Assembly (NCBI GenBank): GCA_024280885.1
Contig: JAJRPF010000048.1
Coordinates: 95,868 to 159,867 of the forward strand
Direction of reading: 5' to 3'
Length of the DNA stretch: 64,000 nt
Source of the DNA: Planctomycetota bacterium
GTDB lineage: Bacteria > Planctomycetota > JAJSAM01 > JAJVHW01
Shown here: positions 1 to 11,823 of the stretch, in pieces
Position numbering within the stretch: the stretch's first letter is position 1
Layout: the number at the start of each line of letters is the position of its first letter
Program-made: the position numbers and the translations under genes
Notes under the pieces: generated by a model
The model's database searches: none
Told to the model about the DNA's origin: nothing
Seen by the model: only the letters and a program-made list of their open reading frames with translations

Positions 1-417
1 GAGGGCTACATGCTCCGCAGTGAGTTGGGCAAACGCGGACTGACCGTGATCGCCGGGCCGTTGCCGAGTGTCACGTCGGGGAGTGGTCCCGACGCCACGG
101 AGACGGCTCTTCGCAACGCGCGCATCCTGCGCGACGCGGGCTGTCGCGTCGTTCTGACGGCCGGCGTCGGCGGCGGCCGCTGGCTGCGCGAGCAGGGCAT
201 GTTCGCGACGCGTTACGGATTTTCGCGCGACGAGGCGTTGGCGGCTCTGACCAGCATTCCCGCAGATCTCTGCGGATTGAAGGATCGCGGGCGGATCACC
301 GAGGGCGCGGCGGCCGACGTGGTTCTCTGGAGCGGCCATCCGATGCTGCCGACGTCGCGCATCTTGCTCGTGGTGGTGGATGGGCACGTCGTCCTCGATC
401 GGACGGCACCGGGGTGA
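1..417 (+). CDS. Amidohydrolase-family protein, C-terminal part (truncated by window start)
   Basis: C-terminal amidohydrolase signature EALAALTSIPADLCGLKDRGRITEGAAADVVLWSGHP...VVVDG; stop overlaps the GTG at 414. Confidence 0.8.
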   Translation, partial: EGYMLRSELGKRGLTVIAGPLPSVTSGSGPDATETALRNARILRDAGCRVVLTAGVGGGRWLREQGMFATRYGFSRDEALAALTSIPADLCGLKDRGRITEGAAADVVLWSGHPMLPTSRILLVVVDGHVVLDRTAPG

Positions 418-431
418 TTGGGAGTAACTCG

Positions 432-1694
432 ATGAAGACGTTGCGTTTTCCGTGGGTGGTCCTCGCGCTCGCCGCAGTCGCGGTGATCACCGTTGCGCCG
501 ACTGCGTCGCGCGCGGCCGATGGCGAGTATGTCATTCAGGCCGGGACGGTCGTCACGATCGACGGCGACATCCTGACCGAAGGCGGCTCGGTCTTCGTCA
601 GCGGGGGCCGCATCGAGGACGTGCAGCCCGGCTACGTCAATCCGTGGGGTGCGACCGTGCAGAAGCACGAGACCGCTTGGCTCATGCCGGGACTTGTCGA
701 AGCGCACAGCCAGGGCGGGCTGTGGCGCGGCACGAACGAGCGCGCGCCGGATACTCCGTTCGTCTCTGTCCTCGACGGCCTCGATCCTCTGAACGACTAC
801 TTCACCGATCTGCTTCGCGACGGCGTCACGACGGTGTTCGTTGTGCCGGGCGATCAGACTCTTCTCGGTGGTCAAGGCATGGTGATCAAGCCGGTCGGGC
901 GCACAGCGGAAGAGATGATCGTGCGTCGCGACGCCGGTCTGAAGATCGCGCTCGCACCCCGTCGTGGAACGAGTCGCATGGCGCAGCTTGCAGAACTGCG
1001 GCGCGCGCTGACGTTGGCGCGCGGGGCGGAGGCACTGGAGGTTACGTCGGACCCCGATGACCCCGCGCGCAGTGCACGGCAGGTTGCGATGTCGGCGCTG
1101 CTCGAGGGACGTCTCCCGGCGGTCATGACCTGCGTGGCGCCGGTCGATGTCGTGAATGCGTTTGCGATCATGGATGAGTTCGGCCTCACGGGTTTCATCC
1201 GGCTGGGCAGCAAGAGCCGACGCGCGTTGCCGCTCCTCGCTGAGCGCGGCGTGCCCTGCATCCTGCCGGACGACATCGAGCCGCTCGAGACCGACGCCGA
1301 GACGGGGAAGTCCGAGCGGCGCTACCTGGCGGCGGAGTGCAAGGCGGCGGGCGTGCCCGTCGTGATCCAGGCGAACGAAGCATCGGGCTACGGGATGCGC
1401 TCACTCTGGTATCAGGCGGCCGTCGCGGTCTCCCAGGGACTCACGCGCGCCGAGGCGCTGCGCGCGGTGTCGCTTGCGCCAGCGCGTGTGCTCGGTGTCG
1501 AGGACCGTGTCGGATCGATCACGAAGGGCAAGGACGCCAATCTGGTCCTCTGGTCCGGCGATCCACTCGACCCCGCGTCGCATGTTGATCTGGCGTGGAT
1601 CGAGGGCGACGCCGTCTACGACCGCACGAAGGACCGCAAGCTCGTGCGTCTGCTCGACGGCGTCGCCGGTAGTCGTCCGGCGGAGGGCCGCTGA
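432..1694 (+). CDS. Secreted amidohydrolase-family protein, degenerate metal site
   Basis: Signal peptide MKTLRFPWVVLALAAVAV..ASRA; PGLVEAHSQ (HxH reduced to HxQ), GVTT, VGSITKGKDANLVLWSGDP; GGGAG RBS before ATG 432 (alternative GTG 414). Confidence 0.85.
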   Translation: MKTLRFPWVVLALAAVAVITVAPTASRAADGEYVIQAGTVVTIDGDILTEGGSVFVSGGRIEDVQPGYVNPWGATVQKHETAWLMPGLVEAHSQGGLWRGTNERAPDTPFVSVLDGLDPLNDYFTDLLRDGVTTVFVVPGDQTLLGGQGMVIKPVGRTAEEMIVRRDAGLKIALAPRRGTSRMAQLAELRRALTLARGAEALEVTSDPDDPARSARQVAMSALLEGRLPAVMTCVAPVDVVNAFAIMDEFGLTGFIRLGSKSRRALPLLAERGVPCILPDDIEPLETDAETGKSERRYLAAECKAAGVPVVIQANEASGYGMRSLWYQAAVAVSQGLTRAEALRAVSLAPARVLGVEDRVGSITKGKDANLVLWSGDPLDPASHVDLAWIEGDAVYDRTKDRKLVRLLDGVAGSRPAEGR

Positions 1695-4369
1695 TGCGAG
1701 GTCTGGCAGCCACACGGCTCCGATTGTCTGGGCCGAGAACGCCGCGTCGCATGACCAGCCGACTCGCGTTCGCGCTGGTCGGGATGGCCACGGCGTTGGC
1801 AGTCGGATCCCCGACACTGCGCGCGGCTGACGAGGGCTCGCTCTATGTGACCGCCGGAACAGTCCACACCGGCGCGGGCGAGACGTTCCGACCGGGCGCG
1901 GTCTCTATCGTTGACGGCCGCATCGTCGCCGTGGGCAGCCCGGATAGTGTCGCGCCGCCCGCGGGCGCGCAGCGCATCGAGGCGGGGCCCGGCGCGGTGG
2001 TCATCCCCGGATTGGTCGCCGCATGGACGCAGCATGTCTCGGCGGATGGCACCGATCCGGCGAGTTTGGCTCCCGATGTTCGCGCGGTCGACGGCTATGA
2101 CTTCACCGTCGATGAAGCGCCGCTACTCGCGGGCGGTGTCACGACCGTCGTCGTCTCGCCTGGTGTGACGCAGGTTGTGCCGGGGCGCGCGGCGGTCGTG
2201 AAGACCGCGGGCGCCTCGCGTAAGACGCGTCTCCTTCTCGCCGAGGCCGGTTTGGCCGTCGGCATCGGCGACGGCGTGCAGAAACCTCTGCCTCTCATGG
2301 ACCCGCCTGATGCGCCGGATGCCGCGCTCAACCCGATCCTGCCGCATCGAAGTCAATTGCCGGTGACGCGTGCGGGTTCCATTCTGCTGCTGCGCGAATT
2401 GCTCGGTAGCGCGTCGGACGGCTATGTCGCCGATGTCGCTGCCGGGCGCGTGCCACTCTTCGTCGCCGCTTCGTCTGCTGGCGACATCGAAGCGGCACTC
2501 GCCTTCGCGGGCGAGACGGGCGTGAAGGCGACGCTCGTCGGGGCGCTCGAAGCTGGAACGATGCGGAGCGAGATTGCCGCCGCTGGCGTGCCAGTCGTGC
2601 TCGCCTGGCCCGGTCGCCCCGGACGCGTCACGGCGTCGACGAGTGCCGAGGTCGAAGCGGTGAGGGCGCGCGCGCGCTCGAACGCGGCAGTGCTCGCACG
2701 GGCCGGTGTTCCGTTCGCGTTGACGGTCGCTTCCGACGCGGATCTGCCGCACCTGCTCTTCGTCGTCGCGTCCGCTGCGCGCGAGGGACTGGACGCGACG
2801 GCAGCGCTCGCGTCGGTCACGTCGTCGGCTGCGCGCATCGCCGGAGTTGCGGATCGCGTCGGCGAGTTGGCGGCCGGCCGCGATGGCGATCTCGTCATCC
2901 TCACGGGCGAGCCCACCGATCTGCGCGCGGTCCCCATCACCACAGTCGTCGACGGTCGCGTGGTCTGGGAACACAAGCGCGGGACGACCACGGTGATCGT
3001 TCGCGCAGCCGAGGTTCACGTCGGTGACGGCACGGTACTCTCGCCTGGCGAGGTCGCGTTCGAGGGCGATCGCATCGTCGAGGTCGGCCACACCGTCGGC
3101 GTTCCGCCGGGAGCGCGCGTGATCGATCTGGGCCGTGGCGCCGTGATGCCCGGAATGATCGACGCGTACTCGCACGCCGGGTTGGCCGGTCCCGGCGGCA
3201 GCGTCGCGACGGATCTCACGACGGCGATGAGCGCGTCGAAGGCCGTGGACCCAAAGGACGCCTCGTTCGCGCTTCTCTCGGCCGAGGGCATCACGACGAT
3301 CCTCGCCGTGCCGGGTGGCAATGGTCGTGTCAACGGCCGCGCCTCGGTCGTGAAGACGGCGGGCGAATGGCCGGGCCGCCGCGTGGTGCTCGTCGATGCC
3401 GGGATGGTGATGCGACTGACGGGCGAAAGAGATCTGAAGAGCGCCAAGGGCCAGCTCACGAGTGCGCTCAAGAAGGCGCGCGGTTACCGCTCCGCGTTCG
3501 AGAAGTACGAGAAGGACAAGAAGGCGTACGACGAGTGGAAGAAGAAGCACGACGCCGAGGTCGCGAAGAAGGCCGCTGAGGACAAGAAGAAGGCTGAGGT
3601 AGCGAAGAAGGCGGCCGAGGCGAAGAAGAAGGCGGAAGCGGACAAGAAGGACGACGAGAAGAAGGACGGGGAGAAGAGCGTCGGCGCGCCGGACGAAGAG
3701 AAGAAGGACGGCAAGGACGAAGCCAAAAAGCCGGCGGTGAAGTCGGAGAAGAAGGCGGAGAAGAAGCCCGCGAAGAAGGAAGCGGACAAGGAAGAGCCGC
3801 GCAAGCCGAAGATTGACGAGGCGATGGAGGGCTGGGCCGCGGTACTTGACGGCAAGGCGCCGATCCTGGTTCGCGCGCGCACGGTCGAGGAGATCCGCGC
3901 AGCGCTCGACACGCTTGGCAAGGAGAAGATCGGCAAGGATGCGATCCGGATCATCGTGGTCGGCGCCGACGACGCGCGCCGCATGCGCTCGGCCCTCACG
4001 AAGGCGAGCGCCGGCGTGATCGCGAGCCCGAGCGTGCTCGTGCGCGACCGCGATGGCGACGTCAACTTGTTGCGCGATCTCTCCCTCTCTCGTCTGTCGT
4101 CAGCGGTCGGCAGCGACTCGTATCTCGGTGGCCATGAACTTCACGACCTGCTTGCGTTCGCCGTGCGCACGGGGCTCTCGCCCTCGGCGGCCGTGAAGCT
4201 CGTCACCGGCGACGCGGCGGCGCTGCTTGGTGTCGCGGATCGCGTCGGGACTCTCGCGCCCGGCAAGGACGCAGACATCGTGCTGCTGAGTGCGCCGCCC
4301 TTCGCTCCGGGTTCGAACGTCGTTTCCGTCTACGTGAGTGGCGAGGAGGTGCGACGTGATCCTCGTTAG
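1694..4369 (+). CDS. Secreted double-domain amidohydrolase-family protein with Lys/Glu-rich insertion
   Basis: Two amidohydrolase repeats (PGLVAAWTQH...GRDGDLVIL; PGMIDAYSH...GKDADIVLL); K/E/A low-complexity stretch ~3490-3810; TGATG coupling to upstream gene. Confidence 0.85.
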   Translation: MRGLAATRLRLSGPRTPRRMTSRLAFALVGMATALAVGSPTLRAADEGSLYVTAGTVHTGAGETFRPGAVSIVDGRIVAVGSPDSVAPPAGAQRIEAGPGAVVIPGLVAAWTQHVSADGTDPASLAPDVRAVDGYDFTVDEAPLLAGGVTTVVVSPGVTQVVPGRAAVVKTAGASRKTRLLLAEAGLAVGIGDGVQKPLPLMDPPDAPDAALNPILPHRSQLPVTRAGSILLLRELLGSASDGYVADVAAGRVPLFVAASSAGDIEAALAFAGETGVKATLVGALEAGTMRSEIAAAGVPVVLAWPGRPGRVTASTSAEVEAVRARARSNAAVLARAGVPFALTVASDADLPHLLFVVASAAREGLDATAALASVTSSAARIAGVADRVGELAAGRDGDLVILTGEPTDLRAVPITTVVDGRVVWEHKRGTTTVIVRAAEVHVGDGTVLSPGEVAFEGDRIVEVGHTVGVPPGARVIDLGRGAVMPGMIDAYSHAGLAGPGGSVATDLTTAMSASKAVDPKDASFALLSAEGITTILAVPGGNGRVNGRASVVKTAGEWPGRRVVLVDAGMVMRLTGERDLKSAKGQLTSALKKARGYRSAFEKYEKDKKAYDEWKKKHDAEVAKKAAEDKKKAEVAKKAAEAKKKAEADKKDDEKKDGEKSVGAPDEEKKDGKDEAKKPAVKSEKKAEKKPAKKEADKEEPRKPKIDEAMEGWAAVLDGKAPILVRARTVEEIRAALDTLGKEKIGKDAIRIIVVGADDARRMRSALTKASAGVIASPSVLVRDRDGDVNLLRDLSLSRLSSAVGSDSYLGGHELHDLLAFAVRTGLSPSAAVKLVTGDAAALLGVADRVGTLAPGKDADIVLLSAPPFAPGSNVVSVYVSGEEVRRDPR

Positions 4370-5636
4370 TCGTTTCGCGGGATTTGTCGCCGCGGCGCTC
4401 GCGCTCACTGCGCTCGGGGCCCTGGCGCTGCAGCCTGGGTTCGCCCGCCCGGCCGAGGACGCCGACGCGTTGATCCCCGGGCGCATGGCTATCCGCGCTG
4501 GGCGTGTCATCCCGGTCGTCGGGGCGCCGATCGACGACGGCGTCGTTCTCATTCGCGACGGAAAGATCGAGGCGGTCGGTCCCGCGTCCAAGATCAGCAT
4601 CCCGCAGGGCTACGAACTCCGGCACTATCCGCGCGGGTTCGTGACGCCTGGCTGGGTCGAGTTACACGCGCATGTCGCGGGCACCGACTTGAACGACATG
4701 GTCTACCCGACGAACCCGGAGCTGCGGAACCTCGACAACATCGTTCCAGACAATCGTCAGCTGCGCGCGGCGCGCGCAGGCGGTGTCACGACGATGCTCT
4801 TCATCCCTGGTTCAGGGACGAATATCTCGGGCTTTGGCACGCTGGTGAAGACGGCTGGCGCGACGGTCGAAGAGATGACCATTCGCTTCCCGGGCGCCAT
4901 GAAAGTCGCGCAGCTCGGCAATCCCGAACGCCGCGTGGGCGACGTGGGTGCGACCACGATGGGGATGAATCATCTCATCCGCGCGCGCATGCAGGAGGCC
5001 AAGCGTTATGCCGCGACGTGGCAGCGCTGGGAGCAGGAACAAACCGGCGAACCACCGCAGCGCGACGAGCGTCTCGAGAACTTCCGCGGCCTCTTCGCGC
5101 ATGAGTTCCCCGTCATCGTGCACACGGTCTGGGTGAACGGCATCGAGGCGACGAAGCGCCTCCTGCACGACGAGCTGGGGCTGGACGTCATCCTCACGCA
5201 CGCGACATTTGACGCGTACAAGGCGGCGGATGTGATCGCGGAGGCCGGGATGGCCGTCAACATCGGGCCGCGCTTGATTCACTACGAACCGGAGAGTCGC
5301 CGCGTCCTCGGCATCCCGCAGCTCTGGAAGGCAGCGGGCTGCGACAACCTCTCGCTCTGCACCGATTGCCCTGTGATCCCCGCCGAGGAACTGACGACGC
5401 AGGCATCCATGGCCGTCCGCTTCGGTCTCGACGAGACGGTTGCGCTGGAGGCGATCTCGATCGTGCCGGCGCGCCAGGTCGGGATGGGTGATCGACTGGG
5501 GTCGCTTGAGCCGGGTAAGGACGCAGACATCGTGGTGCGCGACGGTCCGCCGTTGGACATCCGCTCCGCCGTTCTCTTGACGATCGTCAACGGCAAGAAC
5601 GTCTACGATGTGAAGATCGACCGGAGGCTCTTCTGA
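4356..5636 (+). CDS. Secreted metal-dependent amidohydrolase, apparently catalytically intact
   Basis: GAGGAGG RBS then GTG 4356; signal peptide; ELHAH, MKVA (Lys), VHTV, THAT and TDCP give all expected ligands; GSLEPGKDADIVV. Confidence 0.88.
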   Translation: MILVSRFAGFVAAALALTALGALALQPGFARPAEDADALIPGRMAIRAGRVIPVVGAPIDDGVVLIRDGKIEAVGPASKISIPQGYELRHYPRGFVTPGWVELHAHVAGTDLNDMVYPTNPELRNLDNIVPDNRQLRAARAGGVTTMLFIPGSGTNISGFGTLVKTAGATVEEMTIRFPGAMKVAQLGNPERRVGDVGATTMGMNHLIRARMQEAKRYAATWQRWEQEQTGEPPQRDERLENFRGLFAHEFPVIVHTVWVNGIEATKRLLHDELGLDVILTHATFDAYKAADVIAEAGMAVNIGPRLIHYEPESRRVLGIPQLWKAAGCDNLSLCTDCPVIPAEELTTQASMAVRFGLDETVALEAISIVPARQVGMGDRLGSLEPGKDADIVVRDGPPLDIRSAVLLTIVNGKNVYDVKIDRRLF

Positions 5637-6883
5637 TGCGCGGGAGGCTTCTCTGCGGGCTGCTCTCGCTTGCCTTCTTCGCGAGTGCAGCGATCGCCGA
5701 CGAGGCCCTTCCGTCCGGCGACTTCGCGCTGACGGGCTGCCGTGTGATCCCTGGTGAAGGCGACGTCATCGAGGATGCTGCGGTCGTCGTGAAGGACGGC
5801 ATGATCGTCACCGTGGGCAAGCGTGCCGACGTGGAGCTTCCGCGCGGAGTGCAGGTCGTGGACGCCGTGGGGAAGGTCCTGACACCGGCCTTCGTTCACG
5901 CGGGGACGCGACTCGGATTACGCGGCAGCGGTGGCGGCGGTTCCACGACGATCGATCCTGTGAAGACCGTCATCGACGAGTTGAACCCGTGGCTCGACGG
6001 CAATCGCTGGTCGGCGTCCAACGGCTTCGGGACGCTGGGGCTGATTCCCGGAACCGGCATGATCGGCGGCGTTGGTGCAGCGGTGCGTTCCGCGGCCGAT
6101 GATGTCGAGTCGATGGTGCGCCGCGAGAAGACGCTTCTGCGCGTCGATGTCACTCCGGGTGCGCGCTTCATCAGTACGCTCGCGGGGCAGCTCTCGATCG
6201 CGCGCAAGGACCTCGACAAGCACGCGAAATGGAAGCGTGATCACGCGAAGTGGGAGACCGACAAGAAGAAGGCTGAGGCGGAGAAGGAGAAGCTCCCCAA
6301 GGAGCCGAAGGAGCCGACGCTCTCCGAGAGCCGGGCCGCATATCACGCCGTGCTGCGCGGCGAGATGGCGCTCTATTGCCGTGTCAGTTCGTCGGCCGAC
6401 GTGACGTCACTCGCCGAGGCGCTGGCCGACGAGCGCGTGCGCGGCGACGACCTGCGGCTCTATTGCCTCGTTGTTGGCAGTGCGTATCGCGGCGCCGACG
6501 AGCTGCTCGACCTCGGTGCGACGTGCGTTGTCAGCGCGGCGATGACATCGTGGCCCGGCACGAATCAGACGATCTGCCCCGCTGTCTACCTGCGCAACGC
6601 AGGGCTGCCGGTCGTTCTCATTCCGCGCTCGGACACGCGCGCCGGACTGCTCAACTACACATTGGATATCGCGAGCGTCGTCGAGGCCGGCTTCCCCGTC
6701 GACGAGGTGTGGCCGGCCGTGACTTCCGGCCCGGCCGATCTACTCGGTGTCGGAGACGTCGCCGGTCGCATCGCGAAGGACCACCACGCGGACCTCGTGC
6801 TTTGGGACGGCGATCCGTTGCTTCCGACGACGCGTATCGAGCGTGTCTGGATCGCGGGCGAACCCGTGGAGGACGCACGATGA
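5636..6883 (+). CDS. Secreted amidohydrolase-family protein, degenerate metal site
   Basis: Signal peptide; PAFVHAGTRLG in place of PGxIDxHxH; GRIAKDHHADLVLWDGDP; TGATG coupling. Confidence 0.85.
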   Translation: MRGRLLCGLLSLAFFASAAIADEALPSGDFALTGCRVIPGEGDVIEDAAVVVKDGMIVTVGKRADVELPRGVQVVDAVGKVLTPAFVHAGTRLGLRGSGGGGSTTIDPVKTVIDELNPWLDGNRWSASNGFGTLGLIPGTGMIGGVGAAVRSAADDVESMVRREKTLLRVDVTPGARFISTLAGQLSIARKDLDKHAKWKRDHAKWETDKKKAEAEKEKLPKEPKEPTLSESRAAYHAVLRGEMALYCRVSSSADVTSLAEALADERVRGDDLRLYCLVVGSAYRGADELLDLGATCVVSAAMTSWPGTNQTICPAVYLRNAGLPVVLIPRSDTRAGLLNYTLDIASVVEAGFPVDEVWPAVTSGPADLLGVGDVAGRIAKDHHADLVLWDGDPLLPTTRIERVWIAGEPVEDAR

Positions 6884-8136
6884 GGCGCCGCTCGTTCCTG
6901 ATTGTCGCGTTGGTCGCCATGCTGTCCGCCCTAATCGTCGGCGCCCCGATGGCGTCGCGCGCACAGGAGAGTGGCAAACGTCGACCGAGTGGCGAGCGTG
7001 TGCTGGCGATCGTCGGCGGCGACGTCTACGTCGGCAACGGTGTCGTCTATCGCAGGGGCACCGTGCTCTGTCGCGGGGGCAAGATCGAGGCAGTCGGCCC
7101 CGCGCTGATCGTGCCCGAGGGAGCGCGCGTCATCGACGCCACCGGCCAGCGCGTGCTCCCCGGCTTCGTCGCGCCGAGGGGCGGCAACTTCGGCGTGCGG
7201 CGCGGACGACCTCGCGGCGGCGAGAAATTCGGCGATTGTCTCGATGCCGACGGTATGACCGCGGAACTCGCGCTCGCGTCAGGCATCACCACGTACTACG
7301 CCGCCGGCCGTTCGCGCGCGATCTCCTTTGACCAGACCGCGATCATCAAGCCCGCGCACCGGGCGCCGGAACTGATGATGGTGAAGGAGCCGGCCGCCCT
7401 CGAACTCGGATGGGCAACGGCGAGCATTTCGGATCGCGGGTCACTGCGCACCAAACTCGACGCGGCACGAAAGTGGATCGTGGCGGGCAAGAAGGGGCGC
7501 GCCCCCGCGACGTCGAGCACCATCGCGGCCCTCTCGCGCGACATCCCGGTGCGCATTCGCGCCCAGACTCGCGCCCAGATTCTCGACGCCATCGCGCTCG
7601 CCAAGGCCTACGACTTCCGGCTCGTTCTCGATGACGCACACGAGGCGTGGACCGTTGCGGCGGAAGTTGCTGCGTCGGGAGCAATCGTCGTTGTCCAGCC
7701 GCGCACCCGTCGCTGGCCCTCGACCGGCGCCGAGGACTCGTCGGGATCGACGATCGAGTGCGCAGCGATCCTTGAGAAGGCCGGTGCCCGCTTCTGCGTC
7801 CTGCCGCCCGGCGGCTTCGGCGGCCGCGGCGAGGGCATTGCACTCGGTGGGATCGTCGGTCGCGACATGCTGACGTATCCGCTCGAGGCCGCCTTTGCGA
7901 TCCGCGGTGGAGCCAGTGTCGATGCCGCTCTGCGCGCCATCACGTTGACCGCGGCCGAGGCGCTCGGCATCGAGCATCGCGTCGGCTCGCTCGAACGCGG
8001 GAAGGACGCTGACATCGTGATCTATCCCGGAGACCCGTTCGACTATCGGGTCATGCCGGAGACGACGATCGTGTCGGGACGCGTGCTCTACGAGCGCACG
8101 AAGAGCACGCTCTTCGGCCATCTGCCACCGCGCTGA
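6880..8136 (+). CDS. Secreted amidohydrolase-family protein, degenerate metal site
   Basis: ATGA overlap; MRRRSFLIVALVAML signal (twin-Arg-like); PGFVAPRGG lacks HxH; GITT; VGSLERGKDADIVIYPGDP. Confidence 0.85.
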   Translation: MRRRSFLIVALVAMLSALIVGAPMASRAQESGKRRPSGERVLAIVGGDVYVGNGVVYRRGTVLCRGGKIEAVGPALIVPEGARVIDATGQRVLPGFVAPRGGNFGVRRGRPRGGEKFGDCLDADGMTAELALASGITTYYAAGRSRAISFDQTAIIKPAHRAPELMMVKEPAALELGWATASISDRGSLRTKLDAARKWIVAGKKGRAPATSSTIAALSRDIPVRIRAQTRAQILDAIALAKAYDFRLVLDDAHEAWTVAAEVAASGAIVVVQPRTRRWPSTGAEDSSGSTIECAAILEKAGARFCVLPPGGFGGRGEGIALGGIVGRDMLTYPLEAAFAIRGGASVDAALRAITLTAAEALGIEHRVGSLERGKDADIVIYPGDPFDYRVMPETTIVSGRVLYERTKSTLFGHLPPR

Positions 8137-8177: not shown

Positions 8178-9305
8178 ATGAGTGACGATCGCCTGGACCT
8201 CGTCTCGACGTGGGTCCGTGTTCTCTCACTGCGCACGCGTCTGCTGCGCTGGTACGACCAGGAGAAGCGCGAGTTGCCGTGGCGCACGACGCGCGATCCG
8301 TACCACGTGCTCGTGAGCGAGTTGATGTTGCAGCAGACGCGTGTGGACGTCGTCCTGCCCTATTTCGAACGCTGGATCGTGCGCTGGCCGACCGTCGGCG
8401 ACCTCGCACAGGCGGACGAGGACGAGGTTCTCGCGGCATGGTCCGGGCTCGGCTACTACCGGCGTGCGCGTTCGCTCTTGGCCGTCGCGCAGGCGGTCGT
8501 CGCCGATCACGGCGGGCAGATCCCCGCGGATCCGGCGGCGTTGCGCGAGTTGCCCGGCATTGGTCCCTACACCGCGGCGGCGATCGCATCGATCGCGTTC
8601 GACGTTCCCGTGGCGGTCGTCGACGGCAACGTCGAGCGCGTGCTCTGCCGACTGCTCGCGGATACACGCGATCCGTCGGCCGCCCGCAGGCGAACGGTCG
8701 AGGAGGCGGCGCGGCGCCTGATGACGGGCATGTCGGACGACGATCCGGACGCCGTGCCGCCGCCCGATGGGTTGCGCCCTGCCGACTGGAATCAGGCGCT
8801 GATGGAACTCGGCGCGCTGGTCTGTGTGCCGCGCGAACCGAAGTGTCCGCTTTGTGCGTGGCAGCGCTCGTGCATCGGTTTCCGCTCCGGTCTCGCCGCC
8901 GAGTTGCCGCGCAAGAAAGCGAAGAAGCCCACGCGTGAGGTTGCGCTGCGCATGGCCGTCGTACGGCGCGGCGACGCGTTCCTGCTCGTGCAACGCGCCG
9001 AGCGTTCGTTGCTCTCCGGAATGTGGGAGTTGCCGACCACCGACGAGGGCGGAACCGTTGCAGACCTGCGCGCGGTCGTGGCCGGATTGATCGACGTGTC
9101 GGTCGATCTGTCGCGCGAGCCCGTCCGCACGTTCCGGCACACCATCACGGATCGTCGGATCACGGTCGAAGTCCATACTGCGGTGATCGCTGCGGCGGGC
9201 GATGCGGTCGCCGAGGAACGTCCCGGCATTGCGTGGACCACACGCAGCGACCTGCGCGATTTCGGCGTCTCGTCGATGACCCGCAAGGCGCTGGCGCGTC
9301 CGTAG
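8178..9305 (+). CDS. mutY: A/G-specific adenine glycosylase
   Basis: RELPWR..DPYHVLVSELMLQQT, WSGLGYYRRAR, HhH LPGIGPYTA, VDGNVERV, 4Fe-4S C-x6-C-x2-C-x5-C, C-terminal NUDIX-like domain. Confidence 0.96.
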   Translation: MSDDRLDLVSTWVRVLSLRTRLLRWYDQEKRELPWRTTRDPYHVLVSELMLQQTRVDVVLPYFERWIVRWPTVGDLAQADEDEVLAAWSGLGYYRRARSLLAVAQAVVADHGGQIPADPAALRELPGIGPYTAAAIASIAFDVPVAVVDGNVERVLCRLLADTRDPSAARRRTVEEAARRLMTGMSDDDPDAVPPPDGLRPADWNQALMELGALVCVPREPKCPLCAWQRSCIGFRSGLAAELPRKKAKKPTREVALRMAVVRRGDAFLLVQRAERSLLSGMWELPTTDEGGTVADLRAVVAGLIDVSVDLSREPVRTFRHTITDRRITVEVHTAVIAAAGDAVAEERPGIAWTTRSDLRDFGVSSMTRKALARP

Positions 9306-9674: not shown

Positions 9675-10493
9675 TCAATCGGTCGTTCGCGGGCCCGGAC
9701 GCAGGCTCTTCTTGCGCTTCGCGTGACGTTCGGGGCGCGTGCGATCGCGTTCGCGCAGGTAGGCGACGTATGCGTCCATCTCCGCCGCGGCTTCTCGTCG
9801 CCATGCGTCGCCCAGATCGGCGACCCGCCGGCAGGACGTCGCGTATGCGTCGAATAACCGCTCTCCGAGCGAAGCTTCTCCGCCCTGCTTGGTCGTTGAG
9901 CCGATGAGGAGCGCGAGGTCCTTCCGGACGCCTTCGCGAGACCACTCGGCGTAGCGTGGAAGGTCGATGATCCACGTCGATCCATCGTCGGCTGGGACGA
10001 AGTTGCGGAGCGCGGCATCTCCGTGGACGAAGCCCGCATCGTGCACTGTGGCGAGCGCCGCGATGGCACGCAGCGGCCACTCCGATCGTTCGTCCTTCAG
10101 GAAGCGCGTGTGTGCATTGCGGCCGCGGACGCACTCCGTGACCACGATTGCGCATCCCCGCGGCATCACGCGCGGCTGCTCTCCGAAGAGCAGGATCTGC
10201 GGCACGTGCAGGCCAGCTTGCAGGAAGCGTCGATAGCCGCGGCCTTCGGAGACCGCGCGGCCCGGACGCAGGCGCTTGCCGAGCGGTTGGTCGGGGCGCC
10301 GAAACTCGGCCTTCACGTACGCCTTGCCACCGCGTGGGCGCTCGACGCGCACGCCCACGCGGTCGCCGGGGGTCTCGAGAATCCGATCGATGATGCCGCG
10401 CGCCTCGTCCTCCTGGCAGTCGCCCTCGAGGCGCAACGCGAAGCCGTGGTAGCGCAGGCGGCGTGTGGTCGAAGGGTCGCTCTCGTCGCTCAT
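9675..10493 (-). CDS. Lipopolysaccharide kinase (Kdo/WaaP/InaA-like) family protein
   Basis: YVKAE (catalytic Lys), HGDAALRNFV catalytic loop, WIIDL; start 10493 or 10502. Confidence 0.75.
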   Translation of the reverse strand: MSDESDPSTTRRLRYHGFALRLEGDCQEDEARGIIDRILETPGDRVGVRVERPRGGKAYVKAEFRRPDQPLGKRLRPGRAVSEGRGYRRFLQAGLHVPQILLFGEQPRVMPRGCAIVVTECVRGRNAHTRFLKDERSEWPLRAIAALATVHDAGFVHGDAALRNFVPADDGSTWIIDLPRYAEWSREGVRKDLALLIGSTTKQGGEASLGERLFDAYATSCRRVADLGDAWRREAAAEMDAYVAYLRERDRTRPERHAKRKKSLRPGPRTTD

Positions 10494-10521
10494 CGTCCCC
10501 AACGCTCGCTGAATCTCTCCG

Positions 10522-10629: not shown

Positions 10630-11823
10630 ATGTTCGGAAGCGCCAAGGGCCATATCCAGGGAACGTTGGACGAGATTCGCGAGGGCGGTCTCTGGAAGAA
10701 CGAGCGAGTCATCACGACGCCACAGGATGCCGACATCGGCGTGACCGGTCGCGAGGGCACCGTCACCAATTTCTGCGCCAACAACTATCTCGGATTGGGC
10801 AACCATCCGCGGCTCGTCCAGGCGTCGAAGGACGCCGTGGATCGGTGGGGTTTTGGCCTCTCGTCCGTGCGCTTCATTTGCGGTACGCAGGTTGCCCACA
10901 AGGACCTCGAAGAGAAGATCGCGGAGTACCTCGGCTTCGAGGACACGATCCTCTACGCGGCATGCTTCGACGCCAACGGCGGTCTCTTCGAGACGCTGCT
11001 GACCAAGGAAGACGCGATCATCAGCGACGCGCTAAACCACGCGTCGATCATCGATGGGATCCGCCTCTGCAAGGCCGAGCGCCATCGCTTCGACCACATG
11101 GACATGGCGTCCCTCGAAGAGAAGCTGAAGGCGACGCAGGACAAACGCATGCGTCTGATCTCGACGGACGGCGTGTTCTCGATGGATGGCGACATCGCAC
11201 CGCTCGCGGCGATCGTCGAACTCGCTGAGAAGTACGACGCGATGGTCCATGTGGACGAGTGCCACGCGACCGGTTTCGTCGGTGCGAACGGTCGCGGCAC
11301 GCCCGAGCATTGCGGCGTCGAGGGCAGGATCGACATCGTCACGAGCACGCTCGGCAAGGCCCTCGGCGGTGCGTCCGGCGGGTTCACCGTGGCGCCACGC
11401 GAGATCGTCGATCTCCTGCGCCAGCGCAGTCGTCCGTATCTGTTCAGCAACACGGTCGCGCCGTCGATCGTCGGTGCCTCGATCGAGTGCTTGGCGATGC
11501 TCTCCGAGACGAATGAGCTGCGCGAGAAGCTCGTCGCGAACACGGCACGCTTCCGCGAGGGCATGACGTCGGCGGGCTTCGACATCCGCCCGGGCGCCCA
11601 TCCGATCGTCCCGGTGATGCTCGGCGACGCGCGCCTCGCGTCCGGCATGGCCGACGACCTCCTCGACGAGGGCATCTACGTCATCGGCTTCAGCTTCCCA
11701 GTCGTCCCCCGCGGCCAGGCCCGCATCCGCGTGCAGGTCTCGGCAGCGCACGAGACGAGTCACATCGACCACGCCATCGACGCCTTCACCCGAGTGGGCC
11801 GCAAGCACGGCGTGGTGCGGTGA
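10630..11823 (+). CDS. kbl: Glycine C-acetyltransferase (2-amino-3-ketobutyrate CoA ligase)
   Basis: [33 protein letters not shown] lysine [19 protein letters not shown]; AAGGAGG RBS. Confidence 0.97.

Follow-up and report, generated by a model that had tools for sequence, protein, structure and literature searches.

We analysed a 64,000-nucleotide (nt) stretch of a Planctomycetota genome (contig JAJRPF010000048.1, positions 95,868 to 159,867; hereafter, the window), which opens within a same-strand (+) array of eight overlapping genes encoding nine modules of the amidohydrolase fold, labelled A0 to A7. Nine modules result from eight genes because one protein, A4 (891 amino acids, aa), holds two of them, A4n and A4c. 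According to our reading, to which we assign a probability of roughly 55%, the eight genes constitute one operon for a periplasmic multi-subunit amidohydrolase in which A5 is the sole catalytic module. The eight remaining modules, which have lost the metal ligands of the family and are called dead here, as opposed to the live A5, probably belong, as non-catalytic partners, to an as yet undescribed enzyme complex of the periplasm. In the host genome (G000; an assembly of 6.3 Mb in 74 contigs), the sole further members of the family are one gene pair on contig C8.

An earlier interpretation of the window, made from its letters alone (the sequence-only reading), had described six consecutive same-strand genes within positions 1–8136, and the same six open reading frames were found in our analysis (Table 1). 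Their junctions are, in order, GTGA (414–417), TGATG (1694), a 14-nt overlap, TGATG (5636) and ATGA (6880); these are the types described before, with the 14-nt overlap between A4 and A5 being obtained when A5 starts at the GTG at 4356. This start is likelier than the alternative GTG, with AGGAGG located 7 nt upstream, and a 96%-identical A5 ortholog begins at the residue matching GTG 4356. Similarly, the ATG at 432, which is preceded by GGGAG, is the likelier start of A3. The suspicion that the array might continue upstream proved right, since it extends 3.6 kb beyond the window edge, a segment that holds two whole genes and the 5' part of A2, with junctions that overlap as those in the window do. 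The previous count of seven amidohydrolase domains is therefore correct for the window and too low as the full size of the array. A promoter scan found no sigma-70-like sites, and a terminator scan returned terminator-like sites at chance level only.

All modules share the amidohydrolase fold. For assignment to the superfamily, we considered a match above the curated score together with a (beta/alpha)8 barrel plus composite beta-sandwich fold. All six window proteins scored above the Pfam gathering scores for Amidohydro_1 (PF01979) and Amidohydro_3 (PF07969), and an end-to-end match to Amidohydro_1 was observed only for the A5 product (read as 4338–5636). Pairwise identity among the nine modules is only 23–30%, and each of the eight dead groups aligned to the A5 group with an hhalign probability of 100% (E 1.7e-46 to 1.1e-88). 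With regard to a more specific assignment of A5, no NCBIfam model came near its cut-off: a Caulobacter-type Xaa-Pro dipeptidase (NF051886), although the best NCBIfam match, was rejected at 57.3 bits versus a cut-off of 500, as was the imidazolonepropionase HutI (TIGR01224; 34.4 bits versus 298). Source names of homologs such as ‘imidazolonepropionase-like amidohydrolase’ are generic labels.

In amidohydrolases of this type, the HxH motif follows barrel strand 1, the bridging Lys is provided by strand 4, two further His by strands 5 and 6, and the Asp by strand 8. In a MAFFT alignment of the nine modules, A5 carries the complete set (H110, H112, K189, H262, H288 and D343, with numbering based on the 4338 start), and these six residues are invariant across 117 aligned A5 homologs. 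At the HxH position, the dead modules read DADSA, DAVTQ, EANGR, EAHSQ, AAWTQ, DAYSH, HAGTR and APRGG, the last five of which had already been noted at this place; the six ligand positions of A2 read N, R, T, Q, G and G. In a joint alignment that included orthologs from 15 relatives, the full ligand set was present in 18 of 18 A5-type modules versus none of 98 other modules. When 35 loci were aligned with hmmalign, the values were 47/47 and 1/216, respectively. Profile–profile alignment of each dead group to the A5 group revealed the same ligand loss. The MAFFT, joint and profile–profile alignments thus agree with the original claim that only the gene at 4356–5636 keeps the canonical ligands, and A5 is, judged by these residues, the presumed catalytic subunit with a binuclear-metal site. 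The lone intact module among the 216 lies at position 1 of the array of genome G250 (L047:5605-6675) and has all six ligands, which suggests that this lineage may possess a second live position.

Regarding possible replacement of the lost ligands, no alternative conserved polar set was detected at the six positions in A0, A1, A2, A4n, A4c, A6 and A7, i.e., in seven of the eight dead types. In these seven types, the former ligand sites often hold Gly, Ala, Val or Arg. Arg often stands in for a ligand; for instance, 19 of 32 A6-type modules have it in place of the second His. A3 is a partial exception, having kept the first His (the H of EAHSQ) and the Lys and lost the remaining His ligands. Among 35 A3-type modules, as labelled by the best hidden Markov model (HMM), the His was kept in 28 and the Lys in 29, and the position of D343 is often occupied by Asp or Asn.

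Gene order in related genomes had been chosen beforehand as a test able to refute the array proposal. We compared 35 loci from 35 relatives, 15 of which were picked from A5 matches and the other 20 from A7 matches in further families of the phylum, with long contigs preferred. Composition and order, assigned with module-type HMMs, were conserved as A0-A1-A2-A3-A4n~A4c-A5(x1-4)-A6-A7 in 34 of the 35 loci, several of which end at contig edges, with two stopping before A5; in the exception (G053), an A7-type gene stands alone. Divergence is greatest at array positions 0 and 1, to which the HMMs often assign the label of another dead type. The dead types are single-copy throughout, while A5 occurs once in 23 loci, twice in 7, three times in 2 and four times in 1. 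Of 301 genomes sampled from the phylum, 71 carry an A7-type gene (E <= 1e-30); among the 191 of high quality, the figure is 52. Source names of homologs point to Planctomycetota as the home of the system: A5 orthologs were found under the names Tautonia plasticadhaerens and Pirellula. One A7 homolog carries an Abditibacteriales name.

Every module is under purifying selection. The ratios of nonsynonymous to synonymous substitution rates (dN/dS) calculated against two relatives, for which dS is near saturation, were 0.17–0.23 for A5 and 0.26–0.48 for the dead modules. A5 is also the most conserved module, with a mean distance of 0.97 versus 1.17–1.73 for the others. Phylogenetically, the module types are old clades: A5, A2, A7 and A1 are each set apart by a branch of their own (support 100, 97, 100 and 91, respectively). 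In a quick IQ-TREE analysis with uncertain rooting, one branch separates the 48 dead array modules from the rest (93 in the Shimodaira–Hasegawa-like approximate likelihood ratio test) and another does so for the 19 live modules (84). A model of pair-wise duplication (A0/A2/A4n/A6 versus A1/A3/A4c/A7) does not fit the module phylogeny.

Neighbouring dead modules have repeatedly been joined into one chain. A4n and A4c share one open frame in 34 of 34 relatives' loci holding A4n. In addition, G042 encodes A6 and A7 in a single 892-aa frame, which contains a Lys/Pro-rich linker and lacks a signal peptide; the database representatives P0292 and P0293 show this fusion as well. A0 and A1 form a single 900-aa frame in G034. 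P0351 is a protein of 1343 aa resembling A0, A1 and A2 in succession. Apparent A3–A4 fusions in relatives were discarded, the long frames being upstream read-through in another frame.

A simpler system of live and dead modules was found outside the window, beginning with the pair on contig C8 (147203-150158), in which a live gene with all six ligands is followed 2–3 nt on by a dead paralog. In 12 relatives, 16 further adjacent pairs were identified, and the order was live then dead in 16/16, or 17/17 when the C8 pair is included. The live modules of the 17 pairs read HHKHHD in 11 cases and HHKHQD in six. Seven of the 16 pairs form one open frame and nine consist of separate genes. Among the top 150 A7 relatives, 69 were at least 600 aa long and 55 of these could be scored: 27 were live-dead, five dead-live-dead (fusions of 1300–1500 aa with three modules), one was dead-live, eight had a live module with no score for the remainder, and 14 contained dead modules only. 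The live modules of this pair family are sister to A5 (support 72). The live-dead fusion P0340 (844 residues), modelled with 20 diverse sequences, reached a predicted local distance difference test score (pLDDT) of 87.1 and a predicted template modelling score (pTM) of 0.88; the latter is high for a two-module protein of this length and implies a defined packing of the live against the dead module. No solved chain covers both of its modules, the best query-normalised template modelling score (TM) being 0.43. Because the sister pairs exist both split and fused, it can be argued on Rosetta-stone grounds that the live and dead modules of this family act together as a single physical unit. Like the array, these two-module proteins combine live and dead modules of the same fold, and their live-then-dead order matches that of A5 followed by A6; unlike the array, they comprise two (or three) modules instead of nine and are often a single chain (7/16).

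As leads only, we also recorded look-alikes of these fusions, for which Planctomycetota is the commonest phylum, and Bacteroidota for some forms of about 1000 aa. Multi-amidohydrolase proteins of about 1000–1030 aa near P0319 are similar to the three-module fusions of planctomycetes; as they are known most often from Bacteroidota, live/dead fusions may occur outside Planctomycetota.

The closest solved relative of A5 is 3OOQ, an amidohydrolase from Thermotoga maritima MSB8 (E 1.8e-47, residues 53–423, with all ligand motifs aligned), to which the live module in a natural live-dead fusion (TM 0.93, 34% identity) and the AlphaFold2 model of A4 (TM 0.80) are also most similar in structure. 3OOQ is a structural-genomics entry with a title that gives no function, and no paper on it was found in the open literature searched at title and abstract level. 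It represents a single protein crystallised as 10 identical chains, whereas the array encodes nine different, presumably exported paralogs together, eight of them without ligands. The next-best structural matches are the Lys/Arg carboxypeptidase Cc2672 (3MTW) and the prolidase eah89906 (3FEQ/3N2C), which belong to the same superfamily branch as A5, with weak sequence matches, and presumably have the same HxH/K/H/H/D type of site. To our knowledge, both are homo-oligomers without dead partners.

From these results, we propose that A5 would be the only catalytic module, a binuclear-metal hydrolase of the 3OOQ-like clade that probably cleaves a peptide-like amide bond. The nature of the substrate is a guess made because Cc2672 and a prolidase are the next-nearest characterised relatives. 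A0, A1, A2, A3, A4n, A4c, A6 and A7 would be non-catalytic subunits, each in its own fixed place, and each protein would be exported separately via a Sec-type signal peptide and assembled outside the cytoplasm. The system as a whole would be an elaboration of the simpler, widespread live-plus-dead two-module unit. Neighbouring genes are taken to encode neighbouring subunits because the types keep a fixed order, single copy and overlapping genes, because selection maintains eight ligand-less types, and because neighbours have been fused repeatedly. Sequence comparisons and models thereby support a physical association of the modules, although the union of A5 with the dead modules in a single particle, as well as the stoichiometry, is something we infer. 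A more specific version, which we advance tentatively, is that of an obligate, position-specific periplasmic hetero-oligomer of eight dead and one to four live paralogs, grown stepwise from a live-plus-dead unit, with the dead modules forming a chamber or gate that controls access to the active site.

Several observations weigh against this interpretation. Firstly, the periplasmic location was deduced because of signal peptides that were read by eye (a positive N-terminus, a hydrophobic stretch and an AxA-type site) in the array proteins of the host and in homologs of A5, A6 and A7. Secondly, the variation in A5 copy number could mean that A5 acts on its own, and an array of nine modules, or of 10–12 when A5 is multiplied, fits no obvious symmetric assembly. 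Thirdly, no array-type A5 fused to an array dead module was present among the top 150 A7 relatives, the live-dead fusions in that set belonging to the sister pair family, and the 16 pairs of that family were taken from a match list as adjacent double matches and are not a random sample. Furthermore, the A4 model (pLDDT 79.0; 12 sequences and a long disordered insert) has a pTM of 0.51, and therefore even the fused A4n~A4c pair is not confidently docked. Lastly, distance-matrix co-evolution across 23 genomes and eight module types gave partial correlations of −0.15 to 0.35, and the fused control pair A4n–A4c, with 0.24, did not stand above many other pairs; because this control was not separated, the test is uninformative. 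A twin-arginine route of export was considered as well and rejected, since the RRxFL motif is restricted to close A7 orthologs.

The strongest alternative, which we nevertheless regard as unlikely, is that no stable complex exists and that the dead modules are separate periplasmic ligand-binding proteins, co-regulated with A5, whose pockets have been kept for binding, each with its own substrate or product. The individual signal peptide of each module, as judged by eye, would suit such free binders, as would the deep divergence of dead groups that are yet conserved, the His and Lys retained in A3 and a copy number of A5 that is independent of the dead modules. However, in most orthologous groups, the former ligand sites are occupied by varying residues, which indicates that the centre of the pocket is not tightly constrained, and the fact that eight types are kept strictly single-copy and in a fixed order, together with the fusions between neighbours, is better suited to subunits than to free binders.

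It is distinctly unlikely that the array builds a structural scaffold, either periplasmic or associated with the envelope, in which Lys/Glu-rich helices act as spacers and the chemistry of A5 is secondary or remodels an envelope polymer. One basis for this idea lies in the inserts. The one in A4c is predicted to form a single helix of 68 residues (model residues 562–629) followed by about 50 disordered residues (pLDDT < 50 at model residues 626–676), and A0 and A6 (in the latter around window positions 6215–6300) have shorter Lys/Glu-rich inserts where the barrel of A4c carries its own. Moreover, there are eight dead modules for every live one, and no catabolic or transport genes are conserved nearby. 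Nevertheless, nothing ties the proteins to the envelope, no anchor, lipobox or repeat was seen in the array proteins, and the fact that A5 is the most conserved module and has the lowest dN/dS points to catalysis as the core function.

The possibility that the dead modules are enzymes which bind metal through other ligands or work without metal, making the operon a battery of nine hydrolases, seems to us highly improbable. The partial site of A3 (H110, K189 and often Asp or Asn at the D343 position) and the fully equipped module at position 1 of the G250 array could be cited in its favour, as could the six pair-type live modules with Gln in place of H288, which indicate that the metal site tolerates some change. 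On the contrary, seven of the eight dead types show no alternative polar set at the ligand positions, and A5 is alone in matching Amidohydro_1 from end to end. Finally, decay of the dead genes into functionless duplicates, for which their lost catalytic residues and faster evolution relative to A5 might speak, is contradicted by their intact frames, by one-to-one orthologs that keep the gene order in many families of the phylum, by their dN/dS values and by the old clade formed by each type, and is hardly tenable.

In the open literature, covered at the level of titles and abstracts, we found neither the operon nor tandem or inactive amidohydrolase modules nor the live-plus-dead pairs described. 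Parallels of principle are the eukaryotic 20S proteasome and the chaperonin TRiC, in which the subunit of a homo-oligomer was duplicated into many paralogs with fixed positions; in the proteasome, only some of the paralogous subunits remain catalytic. Both are eukaryotic assemblies of unrelated fold, whereas an assembly of the array proteins is a proposal. If our proposal is true, it would represent a bacterial counterpart of proteasome and TRiC subunit differentiation in a metabolic hydrolase. Complexes that retain dead copies of their own subunits are well known in eukaryotes, and rare and small in bacteria, among which the array would be an extreme case. Within the amidohydrolase superfamily, an inactive pseudo-dihydroorotase (pDHO) is an obligatory, stoichiometric subunit required by its partner enzyme, aspartate transcarbamoylase (ATCase), in Pseudomonas aeruginosa (PMC7053772). 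ATCase-pDHO has one type of dead subunit and an unrelated partner enzyme and is located in the cytoplasm, while the array would place eight dead types beside a live paralog of the same fold, presumably outside the cytoplasm.

The array holds eight conserved dead paralog types per live type and is old enough for many families of the phylum to have it in common; as a conserved, predicted exported system, it is present in roughly one in four of the Planctomycetota genomes sampled. Its two- and three-module relatives, split or fused, could show how such complexity builds up, and the presence of A5 orthologs in cultured species (Tautonia plasticadhaerens and Pirellula) makes the system testable at the bench.

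Table 1. Coordinates of array modules, the A4c insert and the A5 ligand codons, in window numbering; negative values lie upstream of the window.
Feature	Position	Strand	Remarks
A0, dead module	-3575..-2085	+	upstream of window
A1, dead module	-2098..-863	+	upstream of window
A2, dead module	-866..417	+	window holds 3' end only (1..417, 138 aa)
A3, dead module	432..1694	+	alternative GTG start at 414
A4n, dead module	1694..2983	+	first module of two-module protein A4 (1694-4369, 891 aa)
A4c, dead module	2984..4369	+	second module of A4
Lys/Glu-rich insert of A4c	3434..3778	+	between barrel strands 4 and 5
A5, sole module with full metal-ligand set	4356..5636	+	alternative GTG start at 4338
A5 HxH codons (H110, A111, H112)	4665..4673	+	
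A5 K189 codon	4902-4904	+	
A5 H262 codon	5121-5123	+	
A5 H288 codon	5199-5201	+	
A5 D343 codon	5364-5366	+	
A6, dead module	5636..6883	+	HAGTR at HxH position, Arg at Lys position
A7, dead module	6880..8136	+	final array gene; APRGG at HxH position

With regard to the gene neighbourhood, no non-amidohydrolase gene is conserved beside the array, any flanking gene being common to at most 6 of the 35 loci. Flanking genes are instead lineage-specific, such as a gene of the glycosyl-transferase-3 family (6/35 loci) and a DegT-type aminotransferase (3 loci). In the window, a gene for a MutY-type glycosylase (HhH-GPD plus NUDIX_4; 8178-9305, +) begins 42 nt after A7. This neighbour follows the array in the family of the host and in G008, and is not found there in more distant lineages.

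Upstream of A0, an open reading frame at -4898..-4215 (+; L001:13102-13785) encodes a protein with a PEP-CTERM-like tail, consisting of VPLP, a hydrophobic stretch and an Arg run; it has no Pfam match, and in relatives it is not a conserved neighbour of the array. Further downstream, a frame resembling Kdo/WaaP-family kinases (9675-10502, −) and a class I/II aminotransferase gene (10630-11823, +) are ordinary neighbours.

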